The position numbers and the translations under genes were made by a program. Below, in pieces: positions 4,496 through 53,104 of a stretch of 64,000 bases of DNA; position 1 is the first letter of the stretch, and each line of letters begins with the position of its first letter. Under the pieces are notes generated by a model that searched no databases, was not told the DNA's origin, and saw nothing but the letters and a program-made list of their open reading frames with translations. This DNA comes from Dudresnaya verticillata (Eukaryota), in assembly GCA_977862235.1 (NCBI GenBank), contig OZ374557.1, forward strand, positions 992,001 to 1,056,000. Direction: 5' to 3'.

Positions 4496-4620
4496 CACCG
4501 TCACGGTTGGAAGAAACAGCCGTCGAAATCCGCTACGGTAGGAATTCGGCTGTACCGACAACCCGTTACGGAATATTGGATAGACAAGCAAGAACAACCG
4601 TTGTGTTCCGTTAAGGTATC

Positions 4621-18164: not shown

Positions 18165-20208
18165 GACAATTAAGAGGGGAGGAGTTGTTACAAACAGTAA
18201 CAAAACTGCACAGTGGCAAAATTACAAAGCGCCATAATAGCAGCTGACCTCAGCAATGTTTAATGAATTTTCAATCTACAAACGTGTTAGTCTTTATTGT
18301 AGTCTTTTACTTAGTCTATTGATTAAGTGCTAGTTTTAATAAGTTCCATCGAGCTTTCTCTAACTACCAAAATTCTATAAAGGAGGTCTGCTCTCGACTC
18401 TCGTAGAGAAAGGGGGCAAGCCGCAAAAGTCTGAAGCAAAAACTTCTGAGTCGGCGAGTCCAAGCAGTGTGTCAAAAGAACCGCGTGCTTCATCAACCAC
18501 CCAAGAAACCCAACAGTAAGTTTATTCATTACAGTGCTATCTGAGCCGCGACAAACACTACCTCCACGGGGTGCTAGAGCAGTTCTCACCGAGACGGGAG
18601 AACAGCTAGCGGCTAACCGAGACGGATATTGGGAAGCAACAGACAAGGGGGTGGTACAAGTGCCGGGACGGACTCAGTAACGGTGGTGGTGGTAGACCGC
18701 AATGGGCTCGGCGCGGGGAAAACCGTAAAGGATTGGGCTAAGGTTGCTTACCCGTTTACCTTAGGAGCCGCTGCGGTGCCGTCCTGATATACAAGTCAGG
18801 GTGGTACCGAGCGGTCCGGTCCGTGGGGGCCAGACCCTAGTGGTCTGGTCCTATGGTGGAATCGGCCCTGCTGGTCCCAATCTCCGACACGGACATGCGC
18901 AGCATTCTCATTGGCTGGCGCACTACTCTACATACTGTACATATACTCACTAAAAATAAAGAATAAACACTACAAATACTCCACTTCGGTTGGTGCGCTC
19001 CACTGCTGCACAGCAATGTACGCCAGCACACAACAATGCACCCAAAACCGACACGGGTACACGTGCACACATCCCACAACGGTTCAGGCCACACTATATG
19101 CATTTCCATCGTTTCGGATGCCGAATCTCACTTCACCACAGACCCCTCCTTAAATGGCGCCACGTCCTCGTGCGCCCACCTTCAAGGGGTTGCGGCTTGG
19201 GTCCGACGCACCGTCATCGGATTCGAGCAGCTTTTCCAGGTCCTTCGTCAACTGGTCTACTGCCGCCACGGTTTGCTTCGATGCGTTGGGAAACCCCACG
19301 CACCTCCAATACCAGGACTTCCGTCACGGAGAATAACCAAAACGCGCTTGACGCGAGTGTCGCGAGCCATCCGCAAGGATTTCTTGCCCAGGCTGGTCGC
19401 CAGTCTTCTGCCTCATAAAACATCCGCAACGGGTTCCTCCAGTGTGTCAGCGGAGCAGACGCCAGATCTTACCCCTCTTTCACCGTAACGGGAGTGCAAT
19501 CCAGACACCTCACAGACAGCCGCATTTGCAAAAATCCGACATGGGGGTCCTACCACACATAACGGAGCAAACCCTCTGTAATACAGTGAAGGGCTTACAG
19601 AAATGGGCCCTCTGCACCCCTGTATGCGGGGAAATAGCGTTACCTATAGGGCGCCAGCAGGGACAAGATGGGTAGTCTATGATTGGTCCAAGTGTCACCC
19701 TGCAGGTCAGTAGCTTAGTATCTGCCTATTTATTTTAGAAATTAAGCTTAGGATAGGGGCGTGTATATAGCCCAGTATGAGGGGTGCTGCCTGACAGTCG
19801 GAGTACCATATAAGGGTATCTCCCGTAGCGGTCACTGAACAGTAAAGGTAAGCACCTTCCGGCCCCAACTACGTCTCCAAGCTATCGGCTCCGCAGCACA
19901 CTTGTCACTCGTGCCCGGTTAACCACCCGCCCAGTGAACTACCTTCAGTATCGTGCTTCCAATCAGGTTACGTGCCCTCGTCTACCCTCTGGGTTCCTCC
20001 CGCTCTACCACCGCTACCAGGTACCCGCTCTGTGGCTTTCTCATTGAGTGCACTCTTTGAGTTCACAAGAGACCTAAAAGGCACTTCCTTACATCTGGTC
20101 TCCCGACCTAGAACTTCAAGATTGGTGAGCCGTTAAGAGGACGACGAATATCGTAACCCAATTGGATACTGAAGAAAATCAACCCACCAAGGCCCCTGTT
20201 ACTCCAAG

Positions 20209-22225
20209 ATGTCAACTCACTCTCAAAGTAGTTCCCGTCGTGGTCAGAAGGCGGAGCAGACCCCATTGGTCCCCCCAGTTGAGGACCCGGAGTCTTTGCT
20301 CCACCCTCCGAGAACTCCTGGAGTAGAAAAAGAGGAACCGCCTGGTCAAGCATCCACCAATCCCGTAACAGGTAAACCCTTAGCAGGTCCTTCCAAAGAA
20401 GTCGCAAGGCAGCCTCCGCTACATTCCAACCGTAACCATTGGGTCAATACTGATCTGATGCCCCGTCTGATCAACTGGCTACATGATGAGTTGACCCTTC
20501 GGTTACCTCAAACGGTTGAACCACTAGTGGGACACTTTCTAGAAGAACAAGGTCCAAGGACACTCTCGGAGTTTGCCGCCACGGCTACTGACAAGGTAGT
20601 CCAGTCATGGACCACCCAGCCGGACAGTAGCCCAATCTATGGGATGCTTACCAAAATGGTTCCCCCGTTGGTCTCTCAGTCTCTCGAGGCCTATGGGCAA
20701 GCAGCGGACCCTTCAACTGGACCAAAGTCTATACCCACAGGGGAAACCAAAGTGGAAAAGAAGGAGGATGATGTCGTCCCTCCTGGCATCGTTCTACGAA
20801 CCGAAACTGGTGATACAAACAAGAAACCCGAAGGGGGTTTTTCGGACTCCGAAGGTAGTAAGAGTAACCGACATGGATCGAAGTCCAAGAATTCTAAAAA
20901 GAAGAAGAAGGACAAACACAAGAAAAATAAGAAGAAACATTACTCATCTGAGTCTGACGCATCGTCAGTTACCTCAGATGGTTCAAGTTCGGATGATTCA
21001 TCCGATGCTGACCGACGGCGTCGCCGCCGGTCGTCTAAGTCCACAAGGGTGAGGGGGATTAAACCCCTCAACGACCTATTTACCAGAGTGGTTAGCTTTC
21101 AAAGTTACCGATTAGACAACCGCTCAAGGCTTTACTCTTCGAGAATCTCTCGGAAAGTAGATACCTACTATAAGAGGATGGCTATTCAGATGCCACCCTC
21201 TCGGTTTCGGTGTAGACCCGATTAACATCTTGGGTTTCCTTGCAAGGTTCAAGGATGCCTGTAATCACAATGATGTCCATGAAGGAGCTGCCGTTTGGTT
21301 ACTACAATACTTTATGACAGGCACCGCAAGGGACAACCTTCAGGCGAGGTTACAGACAAGAACCAGTATGGTCGTGGACTCCGAAGATGAGGGAGATTTG
21401 TTGACAACGTACCCCGAAGTGGTTAATTACCTTTTGGAAACTTATGCCACCGATGAGGTTATTGCGCTAGCCTATGCTGACGTAATCTCGTTGCGACAAG
21501 CAGAAGGAAAACGGAACGGGACTTCGCAGAGTTTTGTAAGAGCCAGAGCTCGCCGTTGCGGGTCGGTGTTTACAGAACACCGCCTCAAGGCGATCTTCGT
21601 TGATGGGCTCCTCCCGAGTATCCGTGCACCGGTTCGTAACCGGTTGGCTTCTTCAAAGAGTTTTTCCTATACGCAGATCACACAATATGCACAAGACCTT
21701 GGGGAAGCTCATAGGAGTACACGTGGGACGACAAACCTAAAAGGTAAAAGGGGAGTAATTCCCGTCGCCGCGGTTAGCTTCGAGAAACCACCGTCTCACT
21801 CCGCGAGGACGTCGACAGCTACCTCCAAGGGTTTACCGGGCATGGAAGACACTCATGAAGAGGAGATTTTCCAACTCGGTGAAGATTTATTCAACCAGTC
21901 TATGACACCCCCGTCTTCAATATCCACAGTGGGATCCCGAGATGGTGCACCGATACGGGCATGTTGGATCTGTGCTAACCCAGGCCATATGGAACATGAA
22001 TGTCCATTGGTAACCCCCGCGGTGCGCGCTGGCATAATTGCTTCCAGAAGGCAAAACCTCTATGGTTTAGCTAGAGCCCGAGCCATGCCAGGTAATCGAC
22101 AAGGTAACCCCGGGGCCTCCTCCTCAACAGGCCATCCGGGGCCCATCCAGGCTAAACGCACGGGATCACCCTCAGTGGAGCCCTCAAAGGCCGCTCAAGG
22201 AGTTTCCATTGCGGAAAACGTGTAG
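20209..22225 (+). pseudogene. gag: C gag (one frameshift ~21210)
   Basis: Homologous to A gag (LGFLARFKDACN..EGAAVWLLQYF, YATDEVIA). CCHC knuckle CWICANPGHMEHEC. Confidence 0.88.
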
Positions 22226-25200
22226 GAGGAGGCATAACGACGCATGCCCCCTCCCCAAATATGCGCCTTCCAGAACCGGTGTTACGACCCGATATCGTGG
22301 ATAACCAGGAGAGTGATGACTATGATGAAGTATGTTTACTTAAGAAGCAAAAATACAAAGTGGATCTATCGTTAGGGGTCTGGTCGTCTCAGATGATATC
22401 CGCAAGGGGCGTGATTGATTCTGGCGCCGGACCCAATCTGGTTGATGTTAAAATGTTACCTAATGGTTGGGAAAAGCGAGCCAAACCCTATAAGGAAACC
22501 ACGCGTAGCATCGTCGACGCTTCTAATAATCGAATATTACCTCTAGGAGTCATCCCCTTATATATCCGTGTCGGTAATCTCTATACGAAGACCCATTTTC
22601 TGGTTGTGGCTAATATGCCTGCCGAAGTTATACTTGGAACAGCCTTCATAGATCGACATGTCACAGCCATCATGCCGGGACCCCGAAGGTTACTCTTGAA
22701 GGATGCCCCAGCAGTACCTATCCTCGGTGTTTCCATGGGAGGGGTTACTGTTCCCGGCGCTACACAACCAACAGTTTCTACCAAAGTGAGAATAGCCAAA
22801 GACTGGGTCATACCTCCTAGGTCACGTTCGTTCGTGCCGGTGAGAACCAGCGCCTCTGGATTATGCCTGGTTCATAATACCCCGCGGTCACTACACAAGT
22901 CGTTAACCATTATGGCAAACGGGATCAGGGATGTTCTTCCGATGGAAGTTTTTCCTGTGCTAATGACCAATTTTGGTGATCGCCCTGCTCGCTTGAACAA
23001 GACTCAAGTAGTAGGCCATGTGTTACCAAGACCGGATCAGGTTTTGAGTATTGGAACTCTACAATAAGATCCCCGGTCGGATACCCCGGGGGAGAACTCA
23101 AAAGCGGAATCCGGTTGGGAAGACACTGTCCATATAGGTGTCGAAGACAGTGCTACTCGATCCCAAATAATGGAAAGGCTTCAAGAGTATCAAGAAATGT
23201 GGTCAGGCCAACTGGGGACCATTAAGGCCACTCAGCACAGGGTTGAGTTGATGGAAGGGGGAAAACCCATCTATCAACACCCTTACAGAGCTGACCCTAA
23301 AGCTCGAGAAGCCGAAAAGGCGGAAGTACAACGAATGTTACGCGAAGGCGTTATTGAACCCTCTGGGGCAGAATGGGCCAGTCCTGTAGTCCTTGTGTCC
23401 AAACCTGATGGGTCTCTGCGTTTTTGCGTCGACTATCGTCGACTTAATAGTATTACTCGACGAGATTCATATCCGTTACCTCCAATGGACGAATGTATCG
23501 ACTCACTGGGAGATGCTAAGGTATTTACGACGCTCGACTGTAATAGTGACTATTGGCAAGTTGAAGTCGATCCCGACGATCGCGATAAGACGACGTTCAC
23601 CTGCCACGAAGGGTTATACCGTTTTATCAGGATGCCATTTGGTCTCAAGAATGCGCCCGCCACATTCCAACGGACAGTCGACATTATGCTATCTCGATGC
23701 AAGTGGCAATACGCTTTGGTTTACCTCGACGACGTTATCGTGTACTCTCGGAGTATTAATGACCACTTCAACCATTTAGGTACTGTGCTTGATCTACTAA
23801 GAACCGCTGGGGTTTCTCTTAAGTTGTCTAAGTGTAAGTTCTTCGAAGCGTCCGTCGATTACCTCGGCCATATCATACGCCCAGGAAAGCTTGAAGTCGC
23901 CTCCAAGAACGTTACCGCACTAGGCCAGGCGAAACCTACCACGGATCAAACCGAGTTAAGGTCATTTCTTGGAGTATGTAACGTCTATCGACGTTTCGTC
24001 CCCAATTATGCACGAATTGCGTCTCCCCTCTCCAGGAAACTTCGCAAGGATCAACCCTTCACTTTTGAGTCACTCACAGAGGATGAGTACGACGCCTTCG
24101 ACGAACTCCGGCGTCGTCTTTTAACGGCACCCATATTGGCGTTACCTCGAAAGGGATTCCGTTATTATGTTGATACCGATGCGTGCGACCTTCAGGTTGG
24201 CTGTTGCTTACTTCAAGAAACAGAACAAGGGGATAAGCTGCCTATTGGTTATTGGAGTCGCACTCTTAATTCCGCCGAGCGTAATTATTCGGCCACCGAA
24301 CGGGAATGTCTCGCCGTTGTATGGAGTCCTTTAACACTCCGACCTTACCTTGAAGGTGACCGCTTTACGGTTAGAACCGACCACGAACCTCTTCAGTGGT
24401 TGTTAAACCTCTCGGATGCATCGGATCGCCTAGCACGTTGGCGATTAAGACTCTCGGAGTTCGACTTCCTAGTCACCTACAATCCTGGAAGGGAACATCA
24501 TTTGGCGGACACCATGTCACGGCTTTCGACTATAGGGAGTGACCAAACACCATTAGATGATGACATCCCCTGTTTTACCCTCGCGGTTGAAAATAGCACC
24601 CCGCTTCAGCTTAATTTACCTACCGTCCGTGACTTGGCAAACCAAAAAGGTTTACCCCGTCAGGTTAGTAAGCAAGAACTCCTCGGGGCACAATAAAGGG
24701 ATGAGTACTGCCAAAAGATGGCTAACCAAGTTGGTATCGCTGGCTCTCAATTTCAGTGGGACCATAATGGTTTTCTAATCCGCCAAGCGACACTCAATGG
24801 AGCACTTCAGATAGTGGTGCCAAAGTCCCTGCGTCCCCGCATCCTATACTTAGCCCACTATCCTCTCCTTTCTGGACACCCTGGTGGTTCAAGAATGTAT
24901 TATACCCTCCGGCGACAGTTTTATTGGCCGTATATGGCTAATGACGCATATGCCGTTATGGGTGACTGTACTAAGTGTGTCCAAAATCAGGGTACCTTAC
25001 GGAAACATCAGAACTACCTTAAGCTATTTCCCGCCGCTGGGCCACTGGAATTCCTTGCTATGGATCTCGCGGGGCCTTTTCCAAAAACAGAACACGGCAA
25101 CCGTTTCGTCTTGGTTATTACCGATCGGTTTTCTAAGCTTACACGCGCCATACCTTTACGGAATACCAATGCCCGCACGGTTGCGCAAGCTTTTCTGGAC

Positions 25201-26200
25201 CACTGGGTCTACCCTTACGGTGTTCCGTTATATGTGCTTTCCGATAATGGTCCACAGTTCGTGTCAAAGTTCTTTGCCACGATCTGCCAAACCCTGGGGT
25301 TACGGCAGCTATTCACAACCGCTTACCACCCCCAGACCAATGGACAGGTCGAACGGTTCAATAAGACTCTCGTCCAGCGGTTACGTCATTACGTCGCAGA
25401 TCATCAGCGTGACTGGGACAGTTACGTGCATCTGCTTACCTATGCGTATAACCTTCAGGTTCACCGCTCTACGGGTACCTCACCCTTCGATCTCGTCCTA
25501 TCCCGGCAACCTTCGGTTATACCTCTACAGGGTTCTCCCACAACGGGCTTTACCAATCAGTTGGATTCTCAACTCACCGCTGCTTCTGTTAAGCTTTTAA
25601 CCATTCAGAAACTTCGACAGGCTATTGCTACCGCTAAGGTCACCATCACGGCTGCCCAACAACGTTACAAATCTGCCTTTGACACCTCCGTGGCACGGCC
25701 CTTCTCGGTTACTGTTGGTGATTGGGTCTACCTCGATCGCCCTAAGTTCACTAAACGCCAAGTGGGTGAACTACAGGCATCTCTCGTGGACCCCGTTGAG
25801 GAACAGAACCTTTCGAGGAAACTTTTGCCCAAAGCGACCGGACCCTTTTTGGTTACCGCCGTTCATGCCAGCCATACGGTTACTATTACGTAATATGGGC
25901 TTTTTAATACCGTTTCACAAGACCGCATTTCGGTTGACCCTCATCGTGGTCCCCGCGCCCCTCTGGACGACCCTGAGCTTACTCAGGATCCCCCATCGGC
26001 TCCTCCGCCGCCTACGGCGACCGCCCACTCGGATTACTATACAGTTGACCATTTGGTTAAGCACCGTGTCACTGACCGTGGGTACCAATATAAGGTTCGC
26101 TGGTATGGTTAAGCCCCTAACGACGATACTTGGGAGCCACCCGCGCACATCCCTCTCAATTTTGTGTTACGCTACTGGCGCCGGCTTGACAAGACGCCAC
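22213..26200 (+). pseudogene. pol: C pol: protease, RT, RNase H, integrase, chromodomain (several in-frame stops)
   Basis: IDSGA; RFCVDYR, YLDD; TDACD; HPG..CTKC, MDLAGP, SDNG, QVERFN; ATGPF; YKVRWYG..DTWEP. Stops at 23065, 24694, 25891 and 26110. Confidence 0.95.
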
Positions 26201-26836
26201 CGCCTGGAGCTGGGGGTGTGGACTTCGTGCATTTTCGCAGGCTTCATGGGCTTTCGCGGACTCCAAAGTATCTCGTGAAGCGTCACTTAGGGAGTTAGCG
26301 TCACCCAATCAAAAGGTCTCGCGACGGCGTTATCTCCTAGAGTCAAAATGGAACAGCACCAAGTCTCTCTCCCTTCACTTTCTCTATTTATTTTACGCTA
26401 CTTACCTACAGTACTACTGTACTCTCATAGAAACCAAGACAAAGGAGAACCACTCAGGGAGATATGACACAAGACACAAGATGTTTATTGGACACTCTTC
26501 AGATCACCCTTGAGGTTCATCTATTAGGAATACCTACTGGTAACGGGAACGTTTCTCAGCCAACTCCTCGACGTCAGCGGAACGTGAAGACGCACAGCGA
26601 CGGGGCTGAAAAGGGGAAGCCCGACGAGTCGCCGCAGGCGTAGTAACTACAGGAGTCGCCTCGCGCAACGCCACCCGACTCCCTGATACCACGGGAGAAG
26701 CCCTACTGGTAGCAACCCCGGTAGAAAGGGGCTACGTTACCTTATAGGTCGAGGGGCCAGCGGGAGTCTCCTTAGGCTGTCCCCCCATAACCACGTTGGT
26801 AAGGTCCGCAGGGGCAGCGGATTGCTGTTCAGCTCC

Positions 26837-28638
26837 CTAAGTCCGCCCCGGCGATACCAGAGCCAAAGGGTCACCCGGTTGGTAGTTCACCACTTGATCA
26901 AGGGAGCTGGCCGCGCCACGGGCTATAGTCACCGGCTGGAGATCGCTCTTGCGCAATACCTCTCGGGTGAACTTATTGCAAGAAGTAACAAAACTCGTGG
27001 CGTTCTGTGGCATCGCAGCCGCCATACTTGCAAGAGACGCCCTGAGGGTTGCTCCTTCGGTTCCCAAACGGTCCATTGTCGCCATGTAGATACCCCGCTG
27101 GTTCACTTGAAAGTTTCCCATCTGGGCCACCTCCCGGAGTAAGCAAGTCAGGAGTGCCTCCTTCGACACACACTCCCGAGCGGCATCCAGAGCATCCTCT
27201 AAGGTAGCCGGCACCGGAATTTTCGCAGCGCGACACGCCTCTTGAAGTCGCCCAACCCGAAGGTGAACCGAGGCCGGTAGAGTCGCTACGGATGGGACCG
27301 TCGTTGTACCCGAGGGACCACTCGGTGAGACCAATGGGTTAGCGCGCTGAGTCGCGGCCTCAGGAGTTACCGTCGGGGGTCTGCCCATGGAGGTTGCTCG
27401 CGCGGGTGTCGCCGGACGCGCCTCACGCATTTGTGTTACTGTCCCCGGTGCCGCCTGTGGCTTTGGTGTCCCTGGACGCGCCCCAATGCCTCGGCGCTCG
27501 GTCCCCACTGGAATCGCATGTCCTGGCACCGCACGTGTCCTGTCGGGGTAACCACTATAGGTTGGCGCCTCCTCTTCTTCTACCACTTGGTTCCTCTCAG
27601 AGTTCGGCCCCATGTGGCCCCAGCCCCGACCTATACCCTCTTCCTCCTCAAAGGAGTAAAGCGGCGGACCAGGACGGTCATCAACGTTGTGTCGCCTACC
27701 AAATCGGCCCACCGCTTCGGAAACCTCGGCATCATATGCGACCCAAACCTCGCCGGCGTTCCACTTGAAGGTCTCCGATGCGGTTAACAGTCCCGCCAAG
27801 TCACCACCTGAAAAGGTACTACCTCCACAAATGAGGTCAACCCCAAGGGTGCGGATTGACTCAATGAGTGTCTTGGACAAGCGGAAGAGGCGACCATCCG
27901 GTAGACCATCTTGGGCATGGTAACCAGCTTCGGTGTAGGGCGTTGAGTCCCACATACCAAAATAGGCTGCCTGAAGAAAGGCCAGCGCTACGTGGAGTAC
28001 CTGCTCGGTTTTGGCGATTGACCACACTGGGTAATACCACCTCACCGAACTGTCACGCACATGGGCACCGAAGTACGCCAACACTCCCGGAGTTAACGAC
28101 GGCAATGAGCGCGGACCCTCGATGGCGTGCCACCAGCTGGGTTTCCTCACGTAGTGATCCCGACGCCGACCCATGGGGATATTCCACATTTCAACATTGT
28201 GAAACCCCGCTAGGAGACCATCGGTACGGTTGCGAATACGAGTCTCCGTCCAGATATCCACTGCCCACCGCTCGGTTAACCACCAAAGTTCGGGAAAAGG
28301 CTTCGACTCCAGGAGTGACTGGGGAAATAACTTGATTTCGTTCACCCACTGGTTACCCTCAAGGAAGCGGTAGAGCGAGGGGATGTAGTCTTCTTCAAAC
28401 CCGACACGCAGCCACTTGAGGTCACTACGGTAGTGATTCGGAATAAGGACGCTCGGCGGACAGTGACCCAACGCGCAACCCACTGGTTCTCGCGCTTACC
28501 CTCGGGGATCGCCCGGAAGCGGTAGGTGTCCGGATGGGTGTCCACGAGGTAACCTTGGAGTGGAAACTGCTCCAGCACCTCCTGATTGGAAAACGCCGAC
28601 AAACCGCCGTGGCTACCTATGGGGGAAGACTGGGCCAT
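26837..28638 (-). CDS. Antisense accessory ORF of element C, unknown function (~600 codons, one frameshift ~28475)
   Basis: 548-codon open frame plus an upstream frame from ATG 28638 (MAQSSPIG..). Trp/Tyr-rich globular-looking N-terminal half, P/A/T linker, helical-looking C-terminus. Lies between pol and the 3' LTR. Confidence 0.65.
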
Positions 28639-29984
28639 CGCGGCGTAGTAACGTCCGCGGCTTACGCAAGGCGTGACTGCAAAAAGACCACGTCGGGGTT
28701 GGAGAGACGACGACGACGGGGTGGTGAACGGCGTGGTGTTGGTTGCGGTTGACGTGGGACCATGTTGGAAAACCCTTTGAGGTAATGCTGCTGCGGAAGA
28801 GAAGTACTGCTGCACGCGGGATCGATTGCCGGCCGACGACGGTCATGGGCGTCGAGCCGTCTGGATACCAAACGGTTATGATTTCGCGCGAAACACGTGC
28901 AGTCTGCCCTGGCGTCCCGAGGACAGGCCGCAATCTCGGGGGGAGCTCTGTAATACAGTGAAGGGCTTACAAAAATGGGCCCTCTGCACCCGTGTATGCG
29001 CGGAAATAGCGTTACCTATAGGGCGCCAGCAGGGACAAGATGGGTAGTCTATGATTGGTCCAAGTGTCACCCTGCAGGTCAGTAGCTTAGTATCTGCCTA
29101 TTTATTTTAGAAATTATAGCTTAGGATAGGGGCGTGTATATAGCCCAGTATGAGGGGTGCTGCCTGACAGTCGGAGTACCATATAAGGGTATCTCCCGTA
29201 GCGGTCACTGAACAGTAAAGGTAAGCACCTTCCGGCCCCAACTACGTCTCCAAGCTATCGGCACCGCAGCACACTTGTCACTCGTGCCCGGTTAACCACC
29301 CGCCCAGTGAACTACCTTCAGTATCGTGCTTCCAATCAGGTTACGTGCCCTCGTCTACCCTCTGGGTTCCTCCCGCTCTCCAACCGCTACCAGGTACCCG
29401 CTCTGTGGCTTTCTCATTGAGTGCACTCTTTGAGGTCACAAGAGACCTAAAAGGAACTTCCTCACACACTCTTAGAGAGTGTTGCTCTCACCGCAGCGGA
29501 ATAAGTTTCCCCAACGGTCTGCTCGAACGCGCAGTCGATTACGCTCCCATATCCACAATGGACAATTCGTACTCCGATCGGATGACGGTACTTCACACCC
29601 GCTACCTCCTGACGGAAGTTGTTCCGACTTGGGTAGCGAGAAGTTGGGGGGCTAGGTACCCCACAAACCGTCGCAGGCGGCGTGTTTCAGGAATCCGTAG
29701 CGGTTACAGGCGAATACCTTCACCCCTGCCCTTATGAGACACACCACGAACCTCTCCCTCTTGAGATGAACCCAACCCGCGACGGTGTTAATATATTATT
29801 TTCAATATAATAATATATTGAAAATATTAATATTAACATCACTATTAATATATACCCCGGGACTCTGAGAAGAATAATGAGACTGAGGAGTTTTCCTGTA
29901 CTGTCGCGGAAGGGGCCGTTCTTGGCCCAAACGTGCTGGGGCGGCCGCCCATCGCAAGAAAAAGGCGTGCCCCTCCCAGAATGG

Positions 29985-39025: not shown

Positions 39026-41095
39026 GACCCGACCAGATTAAATAGGAACTCCGAGATTTTGCCGCCCTCTCCACCAATTAATATGGTCCAGAGTAATTCT
39101 GAACCAAGGGTAATTAGGGTGTGCTCACAAAAGGTTCAGACCAGATTAATACATGGGCATGGTGACGTGTAATGGAAACGTGTAACAATTTCATTCGTCT
39201 ACTCAACGGGTGCTCCTTCAAAGTGGTTTCTGTGCTCGGCAATTATGACCTGGAGCTGCTCAAAGAGCTGGCACTCCTCCCATCTGCCAGTTGTGTTCAA
39301 AGACATTCCACACTTAATCATTGCCTCGCGGGCGTACGACATACCATCGCCGTCCCTTTGACCATTAACTTCGCGCACAGAAAGCGCAGCAATTTCGAGA
39401 AAGAATTACTTTCCGGGGTTACAAAGCTTTCCGCTCGACCCTTCCACTCCTGGCATCCAGCGATTCTCGTTGATCATCTGCAACTTATGCTGATCCCACA
39501 CACGGCGCCAGGCATCCTTGATCTTAGCAATAAGGAAGGAGTCAGCGGGTTGCACTAGGTCAGTCGCGTTTGCCGGCAGCTTGCGGAGTTCCGTGTTAAT
39601 GGCTGCGCATGCACGGTCAATGCTTTCATTCTGGTTGTGACTAGAACAATTGTCAACCAAAAGCACCCTCTTCTTCCGATCTGACAATGCTCGTATCGCG
39701 CGCGGTTCTCCCAACCATTCCTTGAATACACGGTTATCCATCCATCTTTTCCTCCCAGTGCGGTAACAAACGCCGCAAACATCATCTTTGACGCCACGAA
39801 TTGGGTATGAGCAGTTGTCATTTTTTAAGACTAGCATTGGCACTTCAATGGAGGCATTTACACCCCCTGTAACACGAATAATCATCTTAATTCCCTCATC
39901 GTCAGATAACGCATCTACATATTTGACATGCTCGTCGCCACGAAAACCAAGTGTCCTTCTTTTATCCATATTGAAACAGAAATGAGTTCCATCGGCGTTT
40001 TCGATTGTGTTCTCATCAAGTTCTCCACTCTCAAAACCTCGTCTTAGCGTTCCGAGATGATAAGCTACAGTCTTGCGAATGTGCAGTTGCTTCTCTGGAC
40101 TCGGAGAAAGATTTCCCGTCTGACGTCGAATGACAAGGTTATTGCTGGACATGAATGTCTGTACCCATCGAATAGTAATCTTGCTCACGGCATCTACATT
40201 TGCCAATGATACAGCCACGCTCAGGTAGGATTCAACGGGGTTAGTCGGGAGCATGTGTTTTGCTCAGGTCATTAGAAGAGATGGTGTCACTTTAACACCT
40301 GCAGAACGCAGCCTGTCAAACTCCAGTAGCATGGCCTGGTACAGGATTGTAACCCATTCCTTGCGCTTGCGGCCGCGTCCTGAAAGAGCTTTGAAGTTGA
40401 CCCTTTTGACGCCATGATGAGCATGCCCACTCAAGTTTCCTGGACGAGTGGTACCTGCTCGGAGGGCAATAAATTGTGGCCTTTTACGCCACCACGAAGT
40501 AACCTTTGCGTGGTTGGCTTTGTAAGAGCCCGGCAAGAGCTGTGCGAATTGTCTTAACGCTCGGCCAATAAAAAAACAGAGCCGTGGTGGACATCTTGAC
40601 TTGCATCTCGCCAAACTGGTTCTTCACCTCTTGTTGTCACTCGGCCGTCCGACGCTTATACTGGTAGAACTCTTACCGGTCCAACCAAACGTCCTGTTCT
40701 GGCTGGGAATCATCATCAACCGGAGGCGGCCGAAGATTGGAGGGAGCGGCCAGCGGAGTCATCGGCGGCGCTGAGGCCGCTGGTAGCGTGCGAAACGGCG
40801 AAATCGGAGGGGCTGCCCGCAGCGGTACCTCATTACGGACGGCACCTACCGTGAAGGACGACCCTGCTCGGCCGACTGTTGGAGGCATACCCTGGCCAGT
40901 CGATAACGGGACCGGAGGGGCTGGTGGTGGCCCCGATAACGGTGGATATAGGCCAGGAGCAGGTGGTGGGCCTATAAGAGCGCCCAATGTGGAGGAAGGC
41001 GGAGCCGAGCCTTGTAAGGACTGCGGTTGTCCGCCTGCCGGTGAGGAAGAAGAAGAGATGAAGAAGTGCGTCGAAGACTGATCGGCCAGATACAT
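39026..41095 (-). mobile_element. pogo/Tigger-like (DDE_1) DNA transposon, frameshifted transposase ~39197-41095
   Basis: ENADGTHF, LLVDNCSSH, LPANATDLVQPAD..IAKIK are typical pogo DDD motifs. Possible left end TA|GACCCGACCAGATTAA, with ACCAGATTAA repeated near 39140. No second terminus found. Confidence 0.8.
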
Positions 41096-44000: not shown

Positions 44001-44580
44001 GAGAAGTGATTACCGTGCAGGAGCACATCGGGCTAACAGCCGACGAGTGGCTCCCGCAAGCGCTCGACGCGCATAGCAAGTATGCGTCCGCCCGGGAGTA
44101 GGGCGAGGATCCCTAGCTCCTTTTTGACACGCTGCCGCGATCGACGCGAGGCGAAGGCTGGGCGTCTAGCCAGCTAATGGGATCCGAGGAAGATAGCTCG
44201 ATTCGGAAACTAATTTTGACCGGATCGACCCGGAAAAGAGTGAAGGCGGTGCCGTTCGTGCGTTCGCGCGCACCGTCTTTCTCTACCGGATATCCACCAC
44301 CCTCCTCAAAGCAATCAACGGCAAGTGGGACGTCGAGTCCCACTCAAGGCAGGACCTCCTCGCCAAGCATCGCTCGGAGCCCCCCTACGCGAGGAGTCGT
44401 CGAAGGCTATACCTATATACCACGTGTCTGGGTCGCTAGGCGCTGACCCAGGGGTACTGTTACCCCACACTATCGCGGTGGAGTCCGGGTACACCCTCAT
44501 CGCGAAGCGACGCTGCCATCCGGATGGGAAAAGCATGCGGCGGCGATGGAGTCGATCTTCCGGAAACGCCGCGACCTCCT
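41100..44580 (+). mobile_element. Element F: decayed Gypsy (LTR to 41746, PBS 41748-41765, gag remnant)
   Basis: Shared PBS. DGKKPIRLLGVL..LSEGTAVGVVSWFLDG is homologous to A/C gag, with knuckle remnant CWFC..SCP. Outer boundaries approximate. Confidence 0.7.
41126..41306 (+). repeat. Four copies of GTGTGCAAA..TGGGAAC in the F LTR
   Basis: Direct repeats at ~41126, 41161, 41233 and 41270. Confidence 0.7.
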
Positions 44581-47500
44581 CATCTCTCGCAACATCCCGG
44601 ACGCCTCCACCGCCGGAAATATCTACTAATCCGTTGCCCGGATGCTCTACCAGACATCGGAACTGGACTTCTGCATCCAGCATATCGACAGCCTTCTCGA
44701 CACCCGCTGTCCCTCCATCTCCGCCTCTCCTCCTCCGGCTCCTCAGTCCTCTGCTCCCACCGACGTCTCTACCTCCACGGTCTCCGCCCAGAAACTCGCA
44801 GCGAACATGTCACAACGTTTCAGAACCCCTGCTCGCAAATTCTCGGGAACCGAAAATCTTCATTCCTTCATCCTCGGATACCAATATACCGTCAAAGATT
44901 TTCCCTCACTTCGGAGCAACGTATGCAATATATCCACCTTCTATTCCGCGATGATTCTCTTCTCTTCTATTAAACCCATATCGAAGGTCGTATTCATAAC
45001 TTTGGATCCGCCATTACGTTACTAGATAAGCACTTGTACCCGCTGGCGCGCCAAAATCAGTTCTATGGTTATCTTCGCAACCTACTTATCGGAGATCACA
45101 CTCCCAACGCTACTTCCCTTTCTGACGCCCTCGATAAGGTTAACTCCATTATCACTCGCTACATGCGCTGTGTACCACTACACAAGCGAAATGAAGACAC
45201 CAAGGTCGAGATAATCCGCGGCACGGTAGCCGGTTGTTCCTGGGCTCATCACATCCTGGTACACTCCTCCAATTACGCTACATCCTACCAGGATCTGCTC
45301 GCCCGCCTCCATGGTGCTATTCAAACTGAGGAAGAGATTCGTTTAGCACGCCCTCGTTCCACCTCCTCCGATACCTATCTGGCCGCTAGCCGACCAATGT
45401 ACTCCCCTCGCCTCCCCCGTTTTCGCTCCCAGAGTGCTCCGCACGCTCCCCGCCGTGGCTCGTCACATAACTCTGCCCCGCCCCGCACCCTTGCGTACTG
45501 GAACTGTGGCAAAAACCACCGTTTGATCCACTGCCCTGATCCTCAAAACATCTCTTGCATCACTGCCAACCGGCTCAAGCACTACAATTCTCGCCCTAAC
45601 GCTCGTGGCACTGACGGCAAAAACCGGGTCCTCAAACGCGTTCTCTACGAGCTCGTCAGTCAGGTCGACCCTGACTCTTCCCTTGACCCTCTCCCCTCCG
45701 ACCACTATGACAACAACCCCGAGGCATACAGACTCTCCTCGCCTCTTGACGTCGAGCCTGTCGCTGCCAATGAACCTTTGGCACCCCTTCCAGATATTGT
45801 CTCCCACGAGCCCACACCCTCTCCTGTTCCCGATCCTTCCCTCCAGGATATGCTTCATTCCCTTTCTATTTCCGCAGAGGACCACGCTCAGGCTTAACCT
45901 TCCCTTCAGGACGCCCTTCTGGATTTTTAGAACGGAGTCCCACACCCAGCCGCAGCCCGGCTCCTAGTTCTCCTCTGCGCCCTCCCCCTATTCCCCCTCC
46001 CTCATCTTCCACTTGCCCCAAATCCATAAACCTCTCCCTCCATCGTTCCGGAAACTTTATTGATATCCCTCACACTCGTGTCAAGGACATCTCCATTCCC
46101 AAAGTCCAACAATTCCATGGAGCCTGTCTCGACATTGGCGCATCTCGCTCTGTCATCGGGCGCAACCAAGCACGTGCCTATTGCCGGGCCACCGGATATA
46201 AATTCCGCTTTCGCCCCTCACCTACTTATTTCCGTTTTGGTGACGGCTGCTTCCCGAGTCTTGGTCTACTCCCCGTCCGCATCCCGTGTCCCGATGGTAA
46301 CTTCATACACCTGGAGATGGATGTCGTCGCCGTTGACGTCCCCATGCTTATTGTTCTTGATGTCCTAGACAGCGAACAACTCATCGCTGAAAATGTCGCC
46401 AATACCCTCATCAGCAAACAACACGACTGGTCCATGCCTATCAAAGGCCAAGACGGCCACCTATATCTCAAGTGGAAATTTTCTTCCGTTCTCTTCTCTC
46501 GAAATGATCTCAAGCGCCTTCACTACCACTTCTTTCACCCCTCCGTTCAGAAATTGTTCAACGTCATTTCCCGGGCTACCCCTGACCAAGCCACCCCAGC
46601 TACCAGTAAACGTCTTCAGGACATTAGTGACTCTTGCCGCACCTGCCAGCATTTCGTCCCCAAGCCCCAATCTTTCAAAGTCTCCCTCCCGGACAAAATC
46701 GTCTTCAATTATACCCTCTCCCTCGACCTTATGAAAGTACGAAAACGCCCCATCCTACACGTTGTTGATGTCCACACCCACTTCTCCGCCGCCCGCTATC
46801 TCCGCAGTGAGTCTGCAGAAGACGTCTGGAATGCCTTCCTTTCCTGTTGGGCTTCGATCTACACCGGATTCCCTGATAATATTCGCGCTGACTAAGGCTC
46901 CGTATTTACCAGTCATCTCTTTTCCGAACAGGCCTTTCTGAACGGTATCCGCCTTGCACTATCTGGCGTCGAAAGCCACAACTCACTTGGCGTTGGCGAA
47001 CGTTACCATGGCCCCCTTCGCCGCATCTATGAGAAGATTTTATCCGACTTCCCGTCCCTTGATCCAGAGCTTATCCTGGCTCTCTCCTTTAAGGCCATGA
47101 ATGATACTATGAACTTCGATGGCCTTATCCCCTCACTCCTCGTGTTCGGGGCCCTCCCTCGCTTTCCATCAGTCCACACTCACTTCCTTCTGAAGCAGAC
47201 CGCATGCAGGCACTTGCGTCTGTGCGCCGCGAAATGGAAACTATCACATGCCAACTCCGTATCCGACAAGCCCTCCAATCGAACCTCCCCGCTCCTACTA
47301 AGTTTGAATTTTCCGTCGACCAGGAGGTGCTGGTTTATCGCGAAAAGGAAAAAGTCGAAAATGGCTTGGCCCTTGCCGCATCACCCGCATCAACGGCAAA
47401 CAAGCCTTTATTGATCGCGACGACACTGACGTCCAACACTCCCTTGCCCAGCTCCGTCCATACACTTGAGACCTTAGTCACCTCCCTGATCCATTACCCA

Positions 47501-49330
47501 CCTTGCTGAACTCAATTCTTCAGCCTCTCTCTTCCCCGGCTAATCCCCCTTCCCTGACATACTTCTTACAGAGACTTTAAACCCTTCGAACACCCGCCGC
47601 AACTGGCCCCAACTCTTCCAGGCCAAACGCAAGGAAATCAAAGGCCTCATCGATCGTGGTACTTGGAAACCCGTCCTCCGCCGCGAACTTCCCGACGACG
47701 CCAACATCCTCTCTGGTCGCTTCGTCCTCGTTATCAAGAACACTGAAACCGATGAACCCGTCTTCAAAGCCCGCTTCGTCGTCCAAGGACACAAGGATAA
47801 GGACAAAAACATTCTCGTCCACAACTCTACGAACCTTCGCCAAAGCTCTACACGCATTTTTCCTCAATGGCTGCTCTTCATATCTTCCGCGTCTGGAGCC
47901 ACGACGTCAGTCAGGCTTACCTAAAGTCTTCCGAGGCTCTTTTGCGAAAGGTATACCTCAAACCCCCGAAAGAACTCAACCTCTCCTCCGACGAAGTCCT
48001 CGAACTCCTCAAGCCCTTGTACGGTCTCCCTGATGCCGGCGACTATTGTAATCGCACCATGGCTGCCCACCTTCGTTGCGATCTCGGAATGTCGCCCTCC
48101 TTCGGTGATCCCGGCCTCTACTTTAAACGGGACAAAACCGGTCTACTTGGTCTCATCGGCGTCTACGTCGATGACTCCCTGCTGTGTGGAAATGACACCT
48201 TTCTACGCCTCTCGGACCGTTTCCTTGAGACTTTCGATTCTCGCGACCGTGAACGTGACTCCACAACCTTCGTTGGCGTCCATATTTCTTCCACGCCTGG
48301 CTACGTCTGTCTTGACCAATCCGCCTATATATCTAAACTGTCTCCCTTGGATCCCGACGCATCGTTTCAGGCCTATCGCTCCCTCCGCGCCAAAGTAGCT
48401 TGGGCCACACACACACGACCGGACATTTGTTACTCCGTGGCTATGGCTGCTCGAGTCAGGGAACAAAACTTCACCCCCGAGGATATCAATTCTCTCAACA
48501 AGGTAGTAACGCACTTACGCCAACTACCCCATTTACCTCTGCGATACACCCCACTATATATCAACTCCCTTCAACTCAAGGTTTATGCTGATGCCACTTT
48601 TTCCAACAACCCGGACTTAAGCTCTCAGCTTGGCTATTTCGTTCTCCTTACGGATCGCTCCGACCGTTGCCATCTTCTTCACTTTTCCAGCAAGAAGAGC
48701 CACCGGGTCGTCCGCTCTGTTCTCGGTGCTGAATTCTATGCTTTCGCTGACGCTTTCGACTACGCCTTCACACTTCGTAAGGACCTGGAACGCATTCACA
48801 ACCGACGCATCCCTTTGACAATGCTCACGGACTCCAAGTCTCTCTTTGACATTATCAAGAAATGCACTGTTACTGCCGAAAAGCGTTTAATGATTGACAT
48901 TACCACCGTCCGCGATGCTTACGACAACGAAGAAATCTCGAAACGTGGGCTTCGTGCGCACTAACCAGAATCCAGCCAATGCCTTCACAAAAATCACCAA
49001 GTGCGCCGCCCTGTCGTCCATCCTATCCTCTTCCACCTGCTCGCTTCCCGTCGAACAGTGGGTTGTTCGCCTTACCCGCTCTTCCGACCCGTATCGCATC
49101 AAAAAAGTGGGGAGTGTAGAAATACAGTGATAGTGACGACTCGACGGCTATGCCACGTAATGCTGACTCTCCTCCTTCAAGGAGAATCAAGGCTACCGCG
49201 TGAGTCTTAGTAATTCTTTAGCTGCTCTCTCTCCGGTTCCGACTAGCGGAACCGGACTAGCAAAGCGTACTTAAGATGCTCTCGTCTGCCGGCTAGCGGC
49301 AGACAGATACACACACAGACCAACACGCTC
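44580..49330 (+). mobile_element. Element G: Ty1/Copia, GalEa-like (gag, PR, IN, RT, RNase H, PPT, 3' LTR from 49115); 5' LTR absent
   Basis: Order PR (CLDIGASRSVIG), IN (HYHFFH..CRTC, SLDL, IRAD), RT (KARFVVQG, YGLPDA, YVDD), RH (YADA, KRLMIDI, NPANAFTK). AAAAAAGTGGGGAG|TGTAGA. Clade call is from recalled motif style only. Confidence 0.85.
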
Positions 49331-49706
49331 ACCTCACCTCAGTAAAGGTCCTTCTACCCTACGACTTTTTGCCGTCCGCACTGCGCGCATCCCCGCCCCC
49401 GAGGCACCCCGTAGCGAAACCCGACCAAGTCGCCGCTACCGCCCACCACCGCCTACGCGCTTACAGTTCGCGTGTTCCGACAATCCGTATTTTACGGACA
49501 CCGACTGTCCTCAACATTTTCCAAGTCAAGCTACAAGAACCAAGTTGAAGAAGTACCCTACAAGATCCTGTTTACGTCACTGCTCTATTTTCCAGCCTTG
49601 TTCACCCGGCGTCTACTCCCAGTTGGAGCGTGACCCCGCGTGACAAGCCTCGCATATAATTTACTAACAAAACATTGTACCGTCCATCCGTACCACCGCT
49701 TTACAG

Positions 49707-50494
49707 TGAATGACCGCACACCCATCCACTCGTCGACGCCAAGCTTCGACGAATTCTGCGGCAGCAAACCCGCGCCGCTGCGCGAAGAAGCGGCGTCGAA
49801 GAAACCAATTCCCGGCGTCAGGAACCGAACGGGCAAACGGTCACTACAAACAATCCCAGAAGCAGTTTCGCGCCGCCTTCTACGTATCGCTGAAGCAAGA
49901 GCCGGCCGGCCAAGGGGTGCTACAAAAATACTCAAGAAACCCCATAAAGCCGCTCGCAAAGGTCACGCACCGGCGCGTAAACTGGCTTCAAGCTCCGCGG
50001 CCCCCTTTGTGCTCCCTGATAGCACAGAGACGCGGCGCCTGCGATCTTCACGCGCACCGACGCCTCCAACACCCGAGTACCGCACCGAGTTGCCGCGGAT
50101 TCCGAGGCGCCCACTTGAACGCCGCCAGGTCACGCGTGCAACTACGGCTTCTACGGACAAGGCCCCTGCTCCGGCAGCCCGCGCCACGACGCAATCTCGC
50201 CGTGCGCCCCGTGAGCGCGGTCTGCGTGACAATCGCACCGCCGTGGTGACACCGCGCGCAAAATATAATTACACGCAGTGCTCTTTTAGCACGCATGACG
50301 TGATTCTATACAACGTTCATATAACCTCGACGCGTCATTTTGGCAACGTGCTACGTGCCAAAACCCTCTTCGAATGCCAAATTTGCGACAGCTTTTTGCC
50401 GGACTCGCGCAATTTTCAGCGTCACGCAGCCGGTTTAAAGCATTCCAAAAAAGCTCTCCGCGCACCGTGCTCTCTTCTAGAAATACACCTTTAA
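49707..50494 (+). CDS. Basic low-complexity protein with two JAZ/matrin-type zinc fingers (exon 2; first finger has a C>Y change)
   Basis: YTQC-x12-HITSTRH and CQIC-x12-HAAGLKH. No in-frame ATG. Preceded by ACTAAC (49663) and TTTACAG (ending 49706). Confidence 0.6.
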
Positions 50495-50877
50495 AACAAA
50501 ATCAACACAGCAAAAAGAGCAGAAAATAAATGAAAAACGGGAAACCCCCCAAAAGAAAACAAAACCCAAAAAATGACCCCCCAACACCCGTTCGAAGAGT
50601 CAGTCATCCGGACCAAATGGTCCCGGGAATTCTGGACCTACTGGGGCTTCAAGCTCAACCAACCACGCCGGCGGTTACCGTCCAATATCCCCCGGGCCCC
50701 ATCGGGACACCGAAAGCCCACCCTGCCTCCCCCCACAACGACACCCCTCATAGTGGCCCGCCAAGACCCCAAGCACACGGTAACCCCAGTGCCCCACACA
50801 CCACCGGTGCACCTCAAACCTACATGCACACCTACATACCGGGCTCCTCTCACCCCTCCCCAGGCCCCTCGGCCCGA

Positions 50878-51640
50878 GTGGTGGAGGTGACGATGATGCA
50901 TCAAGTCCAGTCTTATGCTCATCATTCATTGATAAAATTATCCAGTGACAAACCGTCATGGGAAACCGAAGTGCATACAACACATTCAGTTTAGTACTCG
51001 TAGTCCTCATCCGAAGTTATCTTGTCTTGCCCATACTCGGAAACGCTTGGGGCACCTGGGAACTTGGACTCAATAAATTTCAGATAGCGTGATTCAACTC
51101 CACGCGTTATACCTTCATCATCAGTGATTAGTACTCTGCAGATCCCATGCTCAAGTGTTTCTAAGTACACATCTTGCACGTGTCTCGAACTTGGATCCGC
51201 GAGGGAGCCGTAGTACGTATGCAGCACATCCAAAGACCCATAAGTGCTTCAGATCAGGTATTTAACCGGTCACGAGCGAGTATAGCATCGTACGAACAGA
51301 TGAATGCGGTACCAGATTGCGCACATAATTGACATTATTCAGTGCAAACGGCCACAAACATCCTGACAAATCAGCTTAGGTAAGCAAAGTAAGTGCGGCC
51401 TCCACCATTGTTCGGTTCACTCGTTCTTCAATTCCGTTGGGCTCTGGAGTGTACAGCGGGGAGAAATATTTTCCAGCATCACCAACTCCTCACAAATCAT
51501 TCCGGAGAGCCAAGTACTCCTTGGCTCCATCTGAATGGATCTTAACACTGCTGTCGAGATCTTCAAAATCTGTTTCGCGAAACAGACTGAACCAAAGTTG
51601 CCCTAATTGCGGATTTCTTTCATGTCATAAAACGACAGGC
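50878..51640 (-). mobile_element. Copia integrase remnant
   Basis: KIHSDGAKEY and YTPEPNGIEERVNRTMVEAA on the minus strand. 50878-50990 is an inverted copy of ~52120-52225. Confidence 0.7.
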
Positions 51641-52099
51641 ACGAGGTGAAGACCATGGTGTGATCGGTTTTCGAGTAGCCAGCGTAGTTACGGAGTTATG
51701 TGGCTCTCAACATAGCCCCTATTTGCCTCGAAACGTACACGAAAATATGCAACTTTCCCGAATATATAAATAAAACGTTCTACTTTTCCGCAAAATACAC
51801 TGCTTTTCCAAACTTTTACCTCATTGCTGCGCAGTCTTCAGTGTGCAACGTGGCGGTTATGAAGGGGAGATTGCTCCCACGACAGGCTCACCGTCTCGCG
51901 GGACCAGACTCTCAAGCTCGCCGAGCCGCCAAAGTCACCCAACACTGCAGACCTCTGGAACGGACACTCAACCCTGTTGTGCGCCAGCAGCCCGCGCTCT
52001 GCCACCTCGCACATCACCAGCGCCGCCTGCTCCGTAAGAACCACCGGTACTGCCGTCTGCACGCGACGCTGCCGTTTCATCGCGCAGTTCACCGGGTGC

Positions 52100-52960
52100 G
52101 GACTAGGATTCCGAAACATAAGGTTCTGTATGCACTCCGGTTTCCGATGATGTTTTGTCACTGGATAATTTTATCAATGATGAGCATAAGACTGGACTTG
52201 ATGCACCATCGTCACCTCCACCACCTGCATCAGAATTGCGTTCCTCTGAATCTGATGGTACGGATGACGAGGCCGATGACTTCGACAAATCACCCAGTTA
52301 AGACAGATCCAGTACAGGAAACGCAACAAGAGAGTCGATATCCTCGCCGCCAGTGTCGCCAAACTTCCAAATGGTGTCCGGCAGGCTCGGCTAAATCTGA
52401 AACCTTAGTCACTATCACGAAAAGAGATGAGCCTACTCTCTGAGAGGCTATGGCCACAACTCGGGAGCAGCGTGAATTATGGTAGTCTGCAGTTGACGAC
52501 GCGTTTGCCTCATTAGACTCGAAATTGACATCGGTGCGGGACAACAGTCCCGGTGTACAGCTGCTTCCAACCCATATTGTGTTAAAGGTCAAGGGAAAGT
52601 CAGACGGTACGGTCGGCAGATTTAAAGCCCACGCTGTTGCCGGGGGAACCTTCCAGACGTATGGTGAGGACTATGAGGAAACCTATGCCCCAGCAGCGTC
52701 GTTTTCTCTGGTACGAATTTTCCAGTATTTGGTACTATGTCTGAACATGTTTGTGGCACAATTTGATCTGCAACGGCCTTTCTGAATGATGATCTGGCAG
52801 AAAGCGTGTGGGTTGTGTTACTGAAGACGAGGGATTACCTCGTGTGGTTGAGTCGCGCCATGTCACATTCGACGAGTCCAAGTTCCCATTTGCCCCAAGC
52901 CTGTTGGAATATGGGCAGGACGAAACAGATTCAGATGAGGACTACGAGTCTGACTCAGAG
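52100..52960 (+). mobile_element. Copia RT N-terminal remnant (same family as 59520-61338)
   Basis: LPTHIVLKVKGKSDGTVGRFKAHAVAGGTFQTYGEDYEETYAP. Confidence 0.75.
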
Positions 52961-52969
52961 GTGTGAAGG

Positions 52970-53104
52970 TATATGGAGAGGTTGAAGAAGATGTGAGTTT
53001 TGAGAAATTGAAGTCGCTTGACTTCGTTTATGATAAGGAATATGGAGAGGTTGAAGTTGAACAAGATGAGGGTTTTGAGAAATGGAAGTCGCTTGACTTC
53101 GTTT
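52970..53104 (+). repeat. Tandem duplication of ~65-70 bp
   Basis: TATGGAGAGGTTGAAG...GAAGTCGCTTGACTTCGTTT occurs twice. Confidence 0.75.

Follow-up and report, generated by a model that had tools for sequence, protein, structure and literature searches.

The window analysed here is a stretch of 64,000 nucleotides, which is rich in retrotransposons and holds at 1-1485 a single clear host gene, with a CCT domain, whose best named relatives come from Gracilariopsis, Agarophyton, Gracilaria and Chondrus (39-62% identity), which makes a florideophyte red alga the likely host. The locus described below lies directly behind a decayed Ty1/copia element and consists of a long terminal repeat (LTR), a set of predicted splice signals, and an open reading frame (ORF) without ATG that ends in two zinc fingers. 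Its features, together with those of a Ty3/gypsy element of the same window (element B) used for comparison, are the following (a slash marks the predicted splice junction):

3271-18555, plus strand: element B, Ty3/gypsy, the comparison element (LTRs at 3271-3640 and 18188-18555)
3601, 3643, 3664, 3689 and 13213-13437, plus strand: donor, PBS-like site, branch site, acceptor and fingers of element B, as read from the sequence
44537-49060, plus strand: decayed GalEa-type Ty1/copia gag-pol, 5'-truncated within gag, with several stops and frameshifts (gag profile, RVT_2, RT identity)
49101-49114, plus strand: polypurine tract, positioned as in the related element L083
49115-49465, plus strand: LTR, probably common to the upstream unit (as 3' LTR) and the finger unit (as 5' LTR), with TGTA...TACA ends, the polypurine tract before it and a TTCGCG core behind it
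49342-49627, plus strand: zone of candidate splice donors, none of them consensus
49462-49508, plus strand: post-LTR hairpin, reminiscent of the hairpin that is conserved in PBS-less GalEa elements (folding; TTCGCG at 49467)
49662-49668, plus strand: predicted branch site TACTAAC, the sole plus-strand instance
49704-49708, plus strand: predicted phase-1 acceptor CAG/TG, at which an A-preceded donor would complete an ATG
49707-50494, plus strand: ATG-less ORF, with a basic low-complexity region rich in Arg, Pro and Ala followed by two fingers
50270-50338, plus strand: finger 1, degenerate, with Tyr at the first ligand position (alignment of fingers)
50375-50443, plus strand: finger 2, C-x2-C-x12-H-x5-H, of matrin/JAZ type (Pfam matches below cut-offs, structure model)
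50495-50877, no strand assigned: homopolymer-rich segment with ATGs at 50530 and 50573 and no assignable match

An earlier note on this DNA had described the finger frame as lacking an ATG, and indeed the plus strand is open from 49634 to 50491 (stop codon 50492-50494) for 286 codons from stop to stop, none of which encodes Met. Counted from the predicted splice-made start the ORF has 262 codons; when the region was simulated with a Markov model, 113 of 20000 runs gave an open frame of that length or more. Its basic low-complexity part carries a net charge of +33. The branch site and acceptor that had been pointed out before are present as well: TACTAAC at 49662 (containing ACTAAC at 49663) occurs only once on the plus strand of the 64 kb, and the first AG past it, which ends at 49706, belongs to TTTACAG/TG and splits an in-frame GTG. 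In both strands of the window there are 29 RCTAAC sites, four of which have TG after their first AG, and only those at 3664 (element B) and 49663 have a YAG at 15 nt or more together with an open frame of 45 or more codons. Among the features of a red-algal-type intron, the ACTAAC branch and the first YAG are thus found here, while a donor of the A/GTAAGT type is not; a motif scan found no GTAAGT in 49116-49690. Of the donors proposed previously, A/GTACCC (49553), A/GTTCGC (49466) and A/GTAAAG (49342) exist as written, but each of them agrees with GTAAGT at only three to four of six bases and none is a consensus site. The A-preceded GT sites in the donor zone are those at 49342, 49429, 49466, 49525, 49544, 49553 and 49622; use of 49525 would give an intron of 182 nt (178 nt in L083) and use of 49622 one of 85 nt (86-89 nt in L099, L088 and B).

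The earlier description of two C-x2-C-x12-H-x5-H fingers holds for finger 2 and fails for finger 1, in which Tyr replaces the first Cys; L083 and B have the full spacing in both fingers. With E 0.006 for zf-C2H2_jaz and E 0.007 for zf-met, finger 2 stays below the Pfam cut-offs (17.2 of 22.6 and 17.1 of 21.2 bits), which are passed by L083 and L088 and are not reached by L099 and L041. In a structure model built from a seven-row alignment (mean pLDDT 74, pTM 0.45), a beta-hairpin followed by helix-kink-helix is predicted twice, with helices H16-24/H26-34 and H51-59/H61-67. The best PDB matches by sequence were classical DNA-binding C2H2 arrays, and Foldseek searches against PDB and viral libraries gave nothing at E 0.001; the same searches gave short, low-rmsd alignments with spliceosome chains (0.5-1.1 Å over 27-32 columns, E 1.3-2.3), which we take as a lead only. 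When the whole ORF was compared with predicted proteins of 157-501 residues, none of 2812 candidates was a match at E 0.01, and the 103 finger proteins that were found for it are generic (24-42% identity). An origin of the fingers from giant viruses was considered and rejected, as the Atlas and viral-fold matches were generic.

The upstream element was recognised by a gag profile match that begins at 44537 (E 6e-12), in a gag that extends to 45897, and by its reverse transcriptase (RT; RVT_2, E 5.8e-14), and it has the gag and RT/RNaseH kinship of the GalEa type together with the copia domain order. It has 102 relatives at E 1e-30, and 85 loci gathered by RT similarity formed the comparison set; its RT is 55-56% identical to those of L083 and L084, the top identity (56-58%) being that to L083, and loci bearing the fungal CTGATCAGT site group among its relatives. 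The name GalEa rests on the RT/gag kinship and the post-LTR site, in a tree without a named reference element.

The LTR has a firm start at 49115, where it reads TGTAGAAATA and resembles L083 (TGTGGAAATA). Its end at 49465, seen in a single copy, is the best of several candidates, those at 49562 and 49621 being weaker. An LTR end with a primer-binding site (PBS) CA-GT-TGG had been suggested near 49620; the end at 49465 fits better, and the suggested site is not the PBS of B, L088 or L099. These three share the gypsy PBS TGGTAGCATCGC, which is absent from 49100-49720. The stretch 49630-49645 may resemble a tRNA-Trp PBS, and the window holds no tRNA genes for a PBS comparison. Among the CA positions folded in 49300-49640, the 49465 end ranked top, with 11 of the first 14 nt paired and z -2.4, in a test of low power in which true junctions also score weakly. 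The palindrome after 49465 is imperfect, with the hairpin and the TTCGCG core (GTTCGCG) present; GalEa-type relatives carry palindromes such as TTCGCGAAT directly after the 5' LTR, and the TTCGCG core also stands behind the 5' LTRs of L005, L006, L009, L012, L015, L085 and others.

Downstream of the finger ORF, the homopolymer fraction around the ORF at 50530 is 0.25 (window median 0.057), the highest of any stretch in the window. This ORF had been read as a gag in the position known from B, a reading we could not sustain: it has no Pfam match and no significant match to GalEa gags, and the gag profile run over the segment gave E 0.53, so that neither 50530 nor 50573 is supported as a gag start. 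At the DNA level the segment scores 56 against the upstream gag (mean 22, sd 10), the best along the copia body, and this alignment ranks third of 500 window tiles, in a register that disagrees with the gag profile. An unrelated minus-strand copia piece begins at 50878, where it cuts the ORF at 50530 short, and the view that the noisy segment extends it was rejected (score 33 vs. a shuffle mean of 30). Possibly, 50495-50877 is a garbled spacer with the start of gag, or simply poor sequence.

The earlier note had also taken the locus for a second family with the design of B, and hence for a recurring system. The comparisons support this view and allow it to be extended to the GalEa copia L083 and the gypsy elements L088 and L099, so that the cassette spans copia and gypsy and is wider than first proposed. 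In L083 we find, in this order, the LTR, the palindrome, A/GTAAGT, ACTAAC, ACAG/TG, the finger ORF, a spacer and gag; the ORF has 189 codons, is basic and carries two terminal fingers 12 residues apart (12 residues in the window copy too), the spacer to gag measures 174 nt, and gag and pol lie in separate frames. L088, which came from a search of the genome behind L083, has A/GTAAGT just past the PBS, then ACTAAC, CAG/TG and a double-finger ORF before gag. Furthermore, a profile made from four finger regions, none of them from L099, L089 or L041, retrieved all three of these (E 5e-6, 3e-4 and 5e-3, in that order). L099 is a gypsy element whose RT region is 74% identical to that of B, with the donor inside the LTR and an acceptor TTTACAG/TG identical to that of the window locus. 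L041, a distant GalEa element with both LTRs, has an in-frame CAG/TG, no canonical branch site, no clear donor and seven ATGs in its spacer, while in L089, a classic copia, a single finger is seen where the contig ends, upstream of gag. Finger matches were also obtained for L033, L034 and L047, but these are probably spurious. In B, a stop codon and a nested element (3857-13104) interrupt the finger ORF.

In all four elements with a clear donor (L083, L088, L099 and B) it is a GTAAGT preceded by A, and the predicted introns are 178, 88, 86 and 89 nt long, respectively. In locus coordinates the predicted junctions are 130/309 for L083 and, on the reverse strand, 8/97 for L088 and 1153/1240 for L099. 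An in-frame YAG/TG with a branch motif within the first 70 codons was present in four of five finger ORFs and in five of 540 other ORFs of at least 150 aa (Fisher P 1.7e-7), a signature that was defined after the examples had been seen. In G001, fingers are carried by 4 of the 24 RT-bearing contigs, many of the others being without 5' ends, and four of the five finger-profile matches fall on RT-bearing contigs, the fifth being an L099-type fragment. L083, L088, L089 and L099 all come from one assembly, which is filed as bacterial; judging from their kinship to the elements of the window, they are likely of red-algal origin. In viral contigs, searches with single proteins, namely the copia RT, the fingers and the RT of B, found no relatives. 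By alignment, two GalEa-type loci and one gypsy locus were found there, none with fingers, and the nine viral loci showing the PBS-plus-donor pattern had no finger match below E 0.19.

Met accounts for 1 of 1249 codons in six finger ORF regions vs. 41 of 1743 in gag/pol controls; out-of-frame ATGs are fewer than codon shuffles predict in the finger ORFs (8 vs. 22.4 expected, P 4e-4) and more in the controls (60 vs. 46.9 expected), and between acceptor and gag there are 17 ATGs where 54.7 would be expected. Between B and L099 all finger ligands and 26 of 76 residues are kept, with a pN of 0.43 vs. a pS of 0.84 (saturated). The finger frames are therefore coding while behaving like a 5' UTR, as is needed for scanning through to gag. 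The window copy itself is not depleted in ATGs (3 vs. 4.0 expected from codon shuffles, and 3 vs. 5.9 in the acceptor-to-gag-type count) and has an out-of-frame ATG at 49710. It is a real feature, decayed at this locus and intact in other elements, and it is probably inactive.

Taken together, the existence of a leader cassette that combines a retrotransposon-borne finger gene with a splice-made start appears highly probable to us. As for the window locus, we consider it a decayed accessory zinc-finger gene behind the LTR of a GalEa-type copia element, with a predicted splice-made start, and assign this reading a probability of roughly 0.6. The cassette would be expressed from one transcript starting in the LTR. 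In the unspliced leader, finger frame included, AUGs are scarce, so ribosomes would scan on to gag, and this RNA would serve both as gag-pol message and as genome. Splicing of the short leader intron (86-178 nt in the intact relatives) would join A to TG, whereby the finger frame would gain its first AUG and the RNA would be translated into a basic two-finger protein. In B and L099 the intron would also take the primer-binding site with it, which would make the spliced RNA unfit for reverse transcription. The finger protein would then most likely bind structured or double-stranded RNA and act back on the RNA of the element, with a feedback that may favour unspliced RNA through export or splice blocking, as Rev and CERV do. 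Judging from the finger type and the predicted fold, RNA binding is likely and may fail for some types: the fingers of L099 carry acidic residues between their histidines, give no Pfam match at E 0.01 and fit RNA binding poorly. That the protein acts on splicing or export of its own element's RNA is a tentative proposal, to which we give somewhat less than an even chance.

A different function for the same protein would be that of a silencing suppressor that coats double-stranded RNA derived from the element and regulates neither splicing nor export. The top Pfam families, zf-met and zf-C2H2_jaz, point in this direction, as ZNF346/JAZ fingers are described to bind double-stranded RNA without sequence specificity (PMC10957929), and a general anti-silencing tool would explain why unrelated superfamilies use it. 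On its own, however, such a role does not explain a start codon tied to splicing or the avoidance of ATG, and B-type fingers lack the basic residues; we regard suppression as a possible function, somewhat less likely than control of splicing or export.

The assignment of the locus to an owner rests on several lines of evidence. Most likely, the finger locus is the leader of the GalEa-type copia directly upstream, probably as part of a second tandem copy that shares the LTR and is broken after the finger gene; the tandem arrangement of two copia units is a likely one, judged by its layout, and both outer ends of the tandem unit are lost. In agreement with this, the C-rich strand skew runs continuously from pol through the finger ORF. 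From these sequence comparisons the ORF probably belongs to the upstream GalEa family, and the family concerned here is most likely that of the upstream pol and not a B-like element. Direct similarity between the window ORF and that of L083 is weak: the alignment scores 69, and 2 of 1000 shuffles did as well. Masking of Cys and His raised this count to 104 of 1000, and for the N-terminal part it was 241 of 1000, neither being significant. In blastn and tblastn searches of the locus against the 85 loci nothing was returned for the finger ORF, and L083 was recognised by motif and position, not by BLAST.

Alternatively, the finger unit could form the 5' part of a different LTR element, be it gypsy or another copia, with the GalEa element inserted in its LTR or leader and the adjacency accidental. 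Nested insertions are frequent in the window, the LTR end is seen in a single copy, and L084, whose RT is as close as that of L083 and which lies nearest by path length in the tree, shows no finger ORF, its leader being perhaps incomplete. The finger ORF is likewise found in only 2 of 38 GalEa-type loci that have the post-LTR palindrome, five being without a downstream ORF. The finger-bearing GalEa elements did not form a single clade in a quick 37-row tree (three changes for three rows), from which L089 and L090 were left out owing to short RT overlap. The 28-residue finger linker of B and L099 does not occur at the window locus, but the gypsy element L088 also has a short linker (13 residues), so linker length is not diagnostic for gypsy. 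Against a foreign owner stand the TGTA...TACA LTR with the TTCGCG core and a hairpin immediately after it, the absence of the TGGTAGCATCGC PBS, the unbroken strand skew and the same cassette in L083; we therefore judge it improbable and retain the GalEa leader as the preferred reading.

Two further explanations dispense with splicing or with retrotransposons. In the first, the frame would begin at the near-cognate GTG, which is in frame in every case; weak initiation there would also pass ribosomes on to gag, and the window copy and L041 have no consensus donor. A GTG start, however, needs none of the signals seen in the four elements that have a perfect A/GTAAGT 86-178 nt upstream and a branch motif 22-40 nt before the YAG, and this reading, with its splice-like signals incidental, is very unlikely. 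The second, a host zinc-finger gene fragment or a frame open by chance, whose acceptor would be an ordinary one or equally fortuitous, could draw on the lack of a close homologue among predicted proteins and on the downstream end of the segment in sequence without assignment, yet the same layout before gag in L083, L088, L099, L041 and B, and the finger matches of G001 on RT-bearing contigs or in an L099-type fragment, leave it barely tenable.

Only for a few LTR retrotransposons is it known how spliced and unspliced RNA are balanced, and accessory regulators mark the complex retroviruses. That copia and gypsy elements of apparently one algal group have the same leader layout suggests strong selection for a regulator or the exchange of modules. 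A wider hypothesis can be formulated from this: one leader cassette, with an intron-built AUG and a matrin/JAZ double-finger gene, would be shared by at least three red-seaweed LTR lineages (Ty3/gypsy, GalEa copia and classic copia), having been swapped across superfamilies or repeatedly reinvented, and its finger protein would bind the leader splice site or hairpin of its own element as a self-limiting switch from making the regulator to making Gag and genome. We consider this combined proposal doubtful; if true, the cassette would give copia elements a circuit of the Rev kind, made from a spliceosome-type finger. Since the finger ORF has no ATG, gene callers and transposable element annotation would miss it, and each family offers one predicted junction (A/TG) that would be visible in ordinary RNA-seq. 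The value of the decayed window copy lies in its having pointed to the intact L083, L088 and L099.

Among known systems, Ogre ORF1 is a family-borne extra ORF of a plant LTR retrotransposon. The extra ORFs reported from such plant elements lie mostly between pol and the 3' LTR and usually have no known domain (PMC7264820, PMC9289625); they are family-borne and sometimes upstream of gag, as here, while the available text of these papers describes neither a splice-made start nor a matrin/JAZ finger. The fungal PBS-less type of the GalEa clade of Ty1/copia has no PBS but a palindrome and hairpin behind its LTR (PMC5445492). The elements studied here resemble it in RT/gag kinship and, for the window copy as far as its best LTR end and imperfect palindrome allow, in the TGT...CA LTR and the post-LTR palindrome and hairpin. 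They differ in having a finger ORF before gag and, in L083, separate gag and pol frames, since the fungal elements, as far as that account extends, have one large ORF, LTRs mostly of 138-311 bp and no described extra ORF or leader intron. For the introns, the consensus of Cyanidiales, and of these only, is GUAAGU / ACUAACC / AG (10.64898/2026.05.17.725761, from the portion available); those of L083, L088, L099 and B fit it, as does TACTAAC of the window as a branch site. Concerning the fingers, those of ZNF346 combine a hairpin with a kinked helix (PMC10957929), and ZNF346/JAZ, ZNF385, zf-met and small finger proteins of giant viruses share the C-x2-C-x12-H-x5-H spacing and the kinked helix predicted here. 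The cassette protein has only two fingers behind a basic disordered region, and its likeness to those proteins is generic, with no donor lineage shown.

Splice-made start codons of an extra ORF are already known from env of Drosophila gypsy and the springer subclade of insect ERVs (PMC2585583, PMC12992720). There, too, splicing creates the start of an extra ORF of an LTR element; according to the text available, however, the split is AT/G, the intron removes gag-pol and the ORF is the downstream envelope gene, whereas here the split is A/TG, the intron is a short one in the leader, and a soluble finger protein, not an envelope, is encoded upstream of gag, in copia as well as in gypsy. In the full-text literature we found no matrin/JAZ finger ORF upstream of gag and no such leader intron in red algae, and no finger-gene leader cassette of this kind (subscription journals, Repbase entries and supplements lay outside the scope of this search). 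The functional model adopted here is CERV of the C. elegans element Cer1. This accessory protein, which is translated from a spliced mRNA and has a putative zinc-binding contact to RNA, is needed for the fate of the unspliced RNA of its LTR retrotransposon; HIV Rev is described alongside it (PMC10309623). In the parts of that study available, CERV is large and contains G and M domains and a loop of the C4 type, and experiments have established its role, while the proteins here measure about 190-260 aa, have two C2H2 fingers of matrin/JAZ type and a function that is predicted only. By analogy, then, the cassette would work like the spliced accessory gene of complex retroelements, and it would do so with a protein that belongs to none of the env, Rev or CERV families.

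Element B, the window Ty3/gypsy element with a double-finger ORF ahead of gag whose start is predicted to be made by splicing, was complete (3271-18555), with two LTRs that were 97.6% alike and a second gypsy element (3857-13104) nested inside its finger ORF. In the inferred copia LTR lying ahead of the other finger ORF of the window, two strong hairpins with CTAG loops were found at 49232-49304 (z -4.55), one on each side of a TATA-like motif. Further features of the window were the following:

1-1485, host CCT-domain gene
26837-28495, minus strand, antisense ORF of 552 codons within the gypsy element 19574-29466, located after pol and before the 3' LTR
39406-40263, minus strand, DDE_1 transposase fragment (E 7e-16)
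50878-53000, both strands, classic copia in rearranged pieces with inverted repeats
50878-51013 with 52224-52093, inverted-repeat pair of classic copia pieces
50996-51125 with 52949-52820, inverted-repeat pair of classic copia pieces

The top named matches of the CCT-domain gene came from Gracilariales and Chondrus, which makes a florideophyte red alga the likely host.

Eukaryote-type retrotransposon contigs were present inside two genomes filed as bacteria, G001 (24 RT matches; loci L083-L084 and L088-L109) and G002 (three RT matches; loci L085, L110, and L111), and probably represent binning contamination with algal DNA. The window antisense ORF had no Pfam match and, in a pairwise comparison, showed weak similarity (E 3e-7) to the antisense ORF of the G001 locus L100. 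ORFs at the equivalent position were found in L098 and L103.

Post-LTR palindromes (TTCGCGAAT, TTCCGGAAT, TTGGATCCAAT) were detected in nine GalEa-type copia elements (L004, L005, L006, L009, L012, L015, L041, L083, and L085), for all of which an algal source is likely. In L085, a GalEa element without a finger ORF, GTAAGT occurs 14 nt past the palindrome, preceded by a G and immediately ahead of the gag ATG (4363-4403). The palindromes behind the LTRs of these nine loci resemble the PBS-less site of fungal elements, a post-LTR palindrome site that PMC5445492 reports from fungi only.
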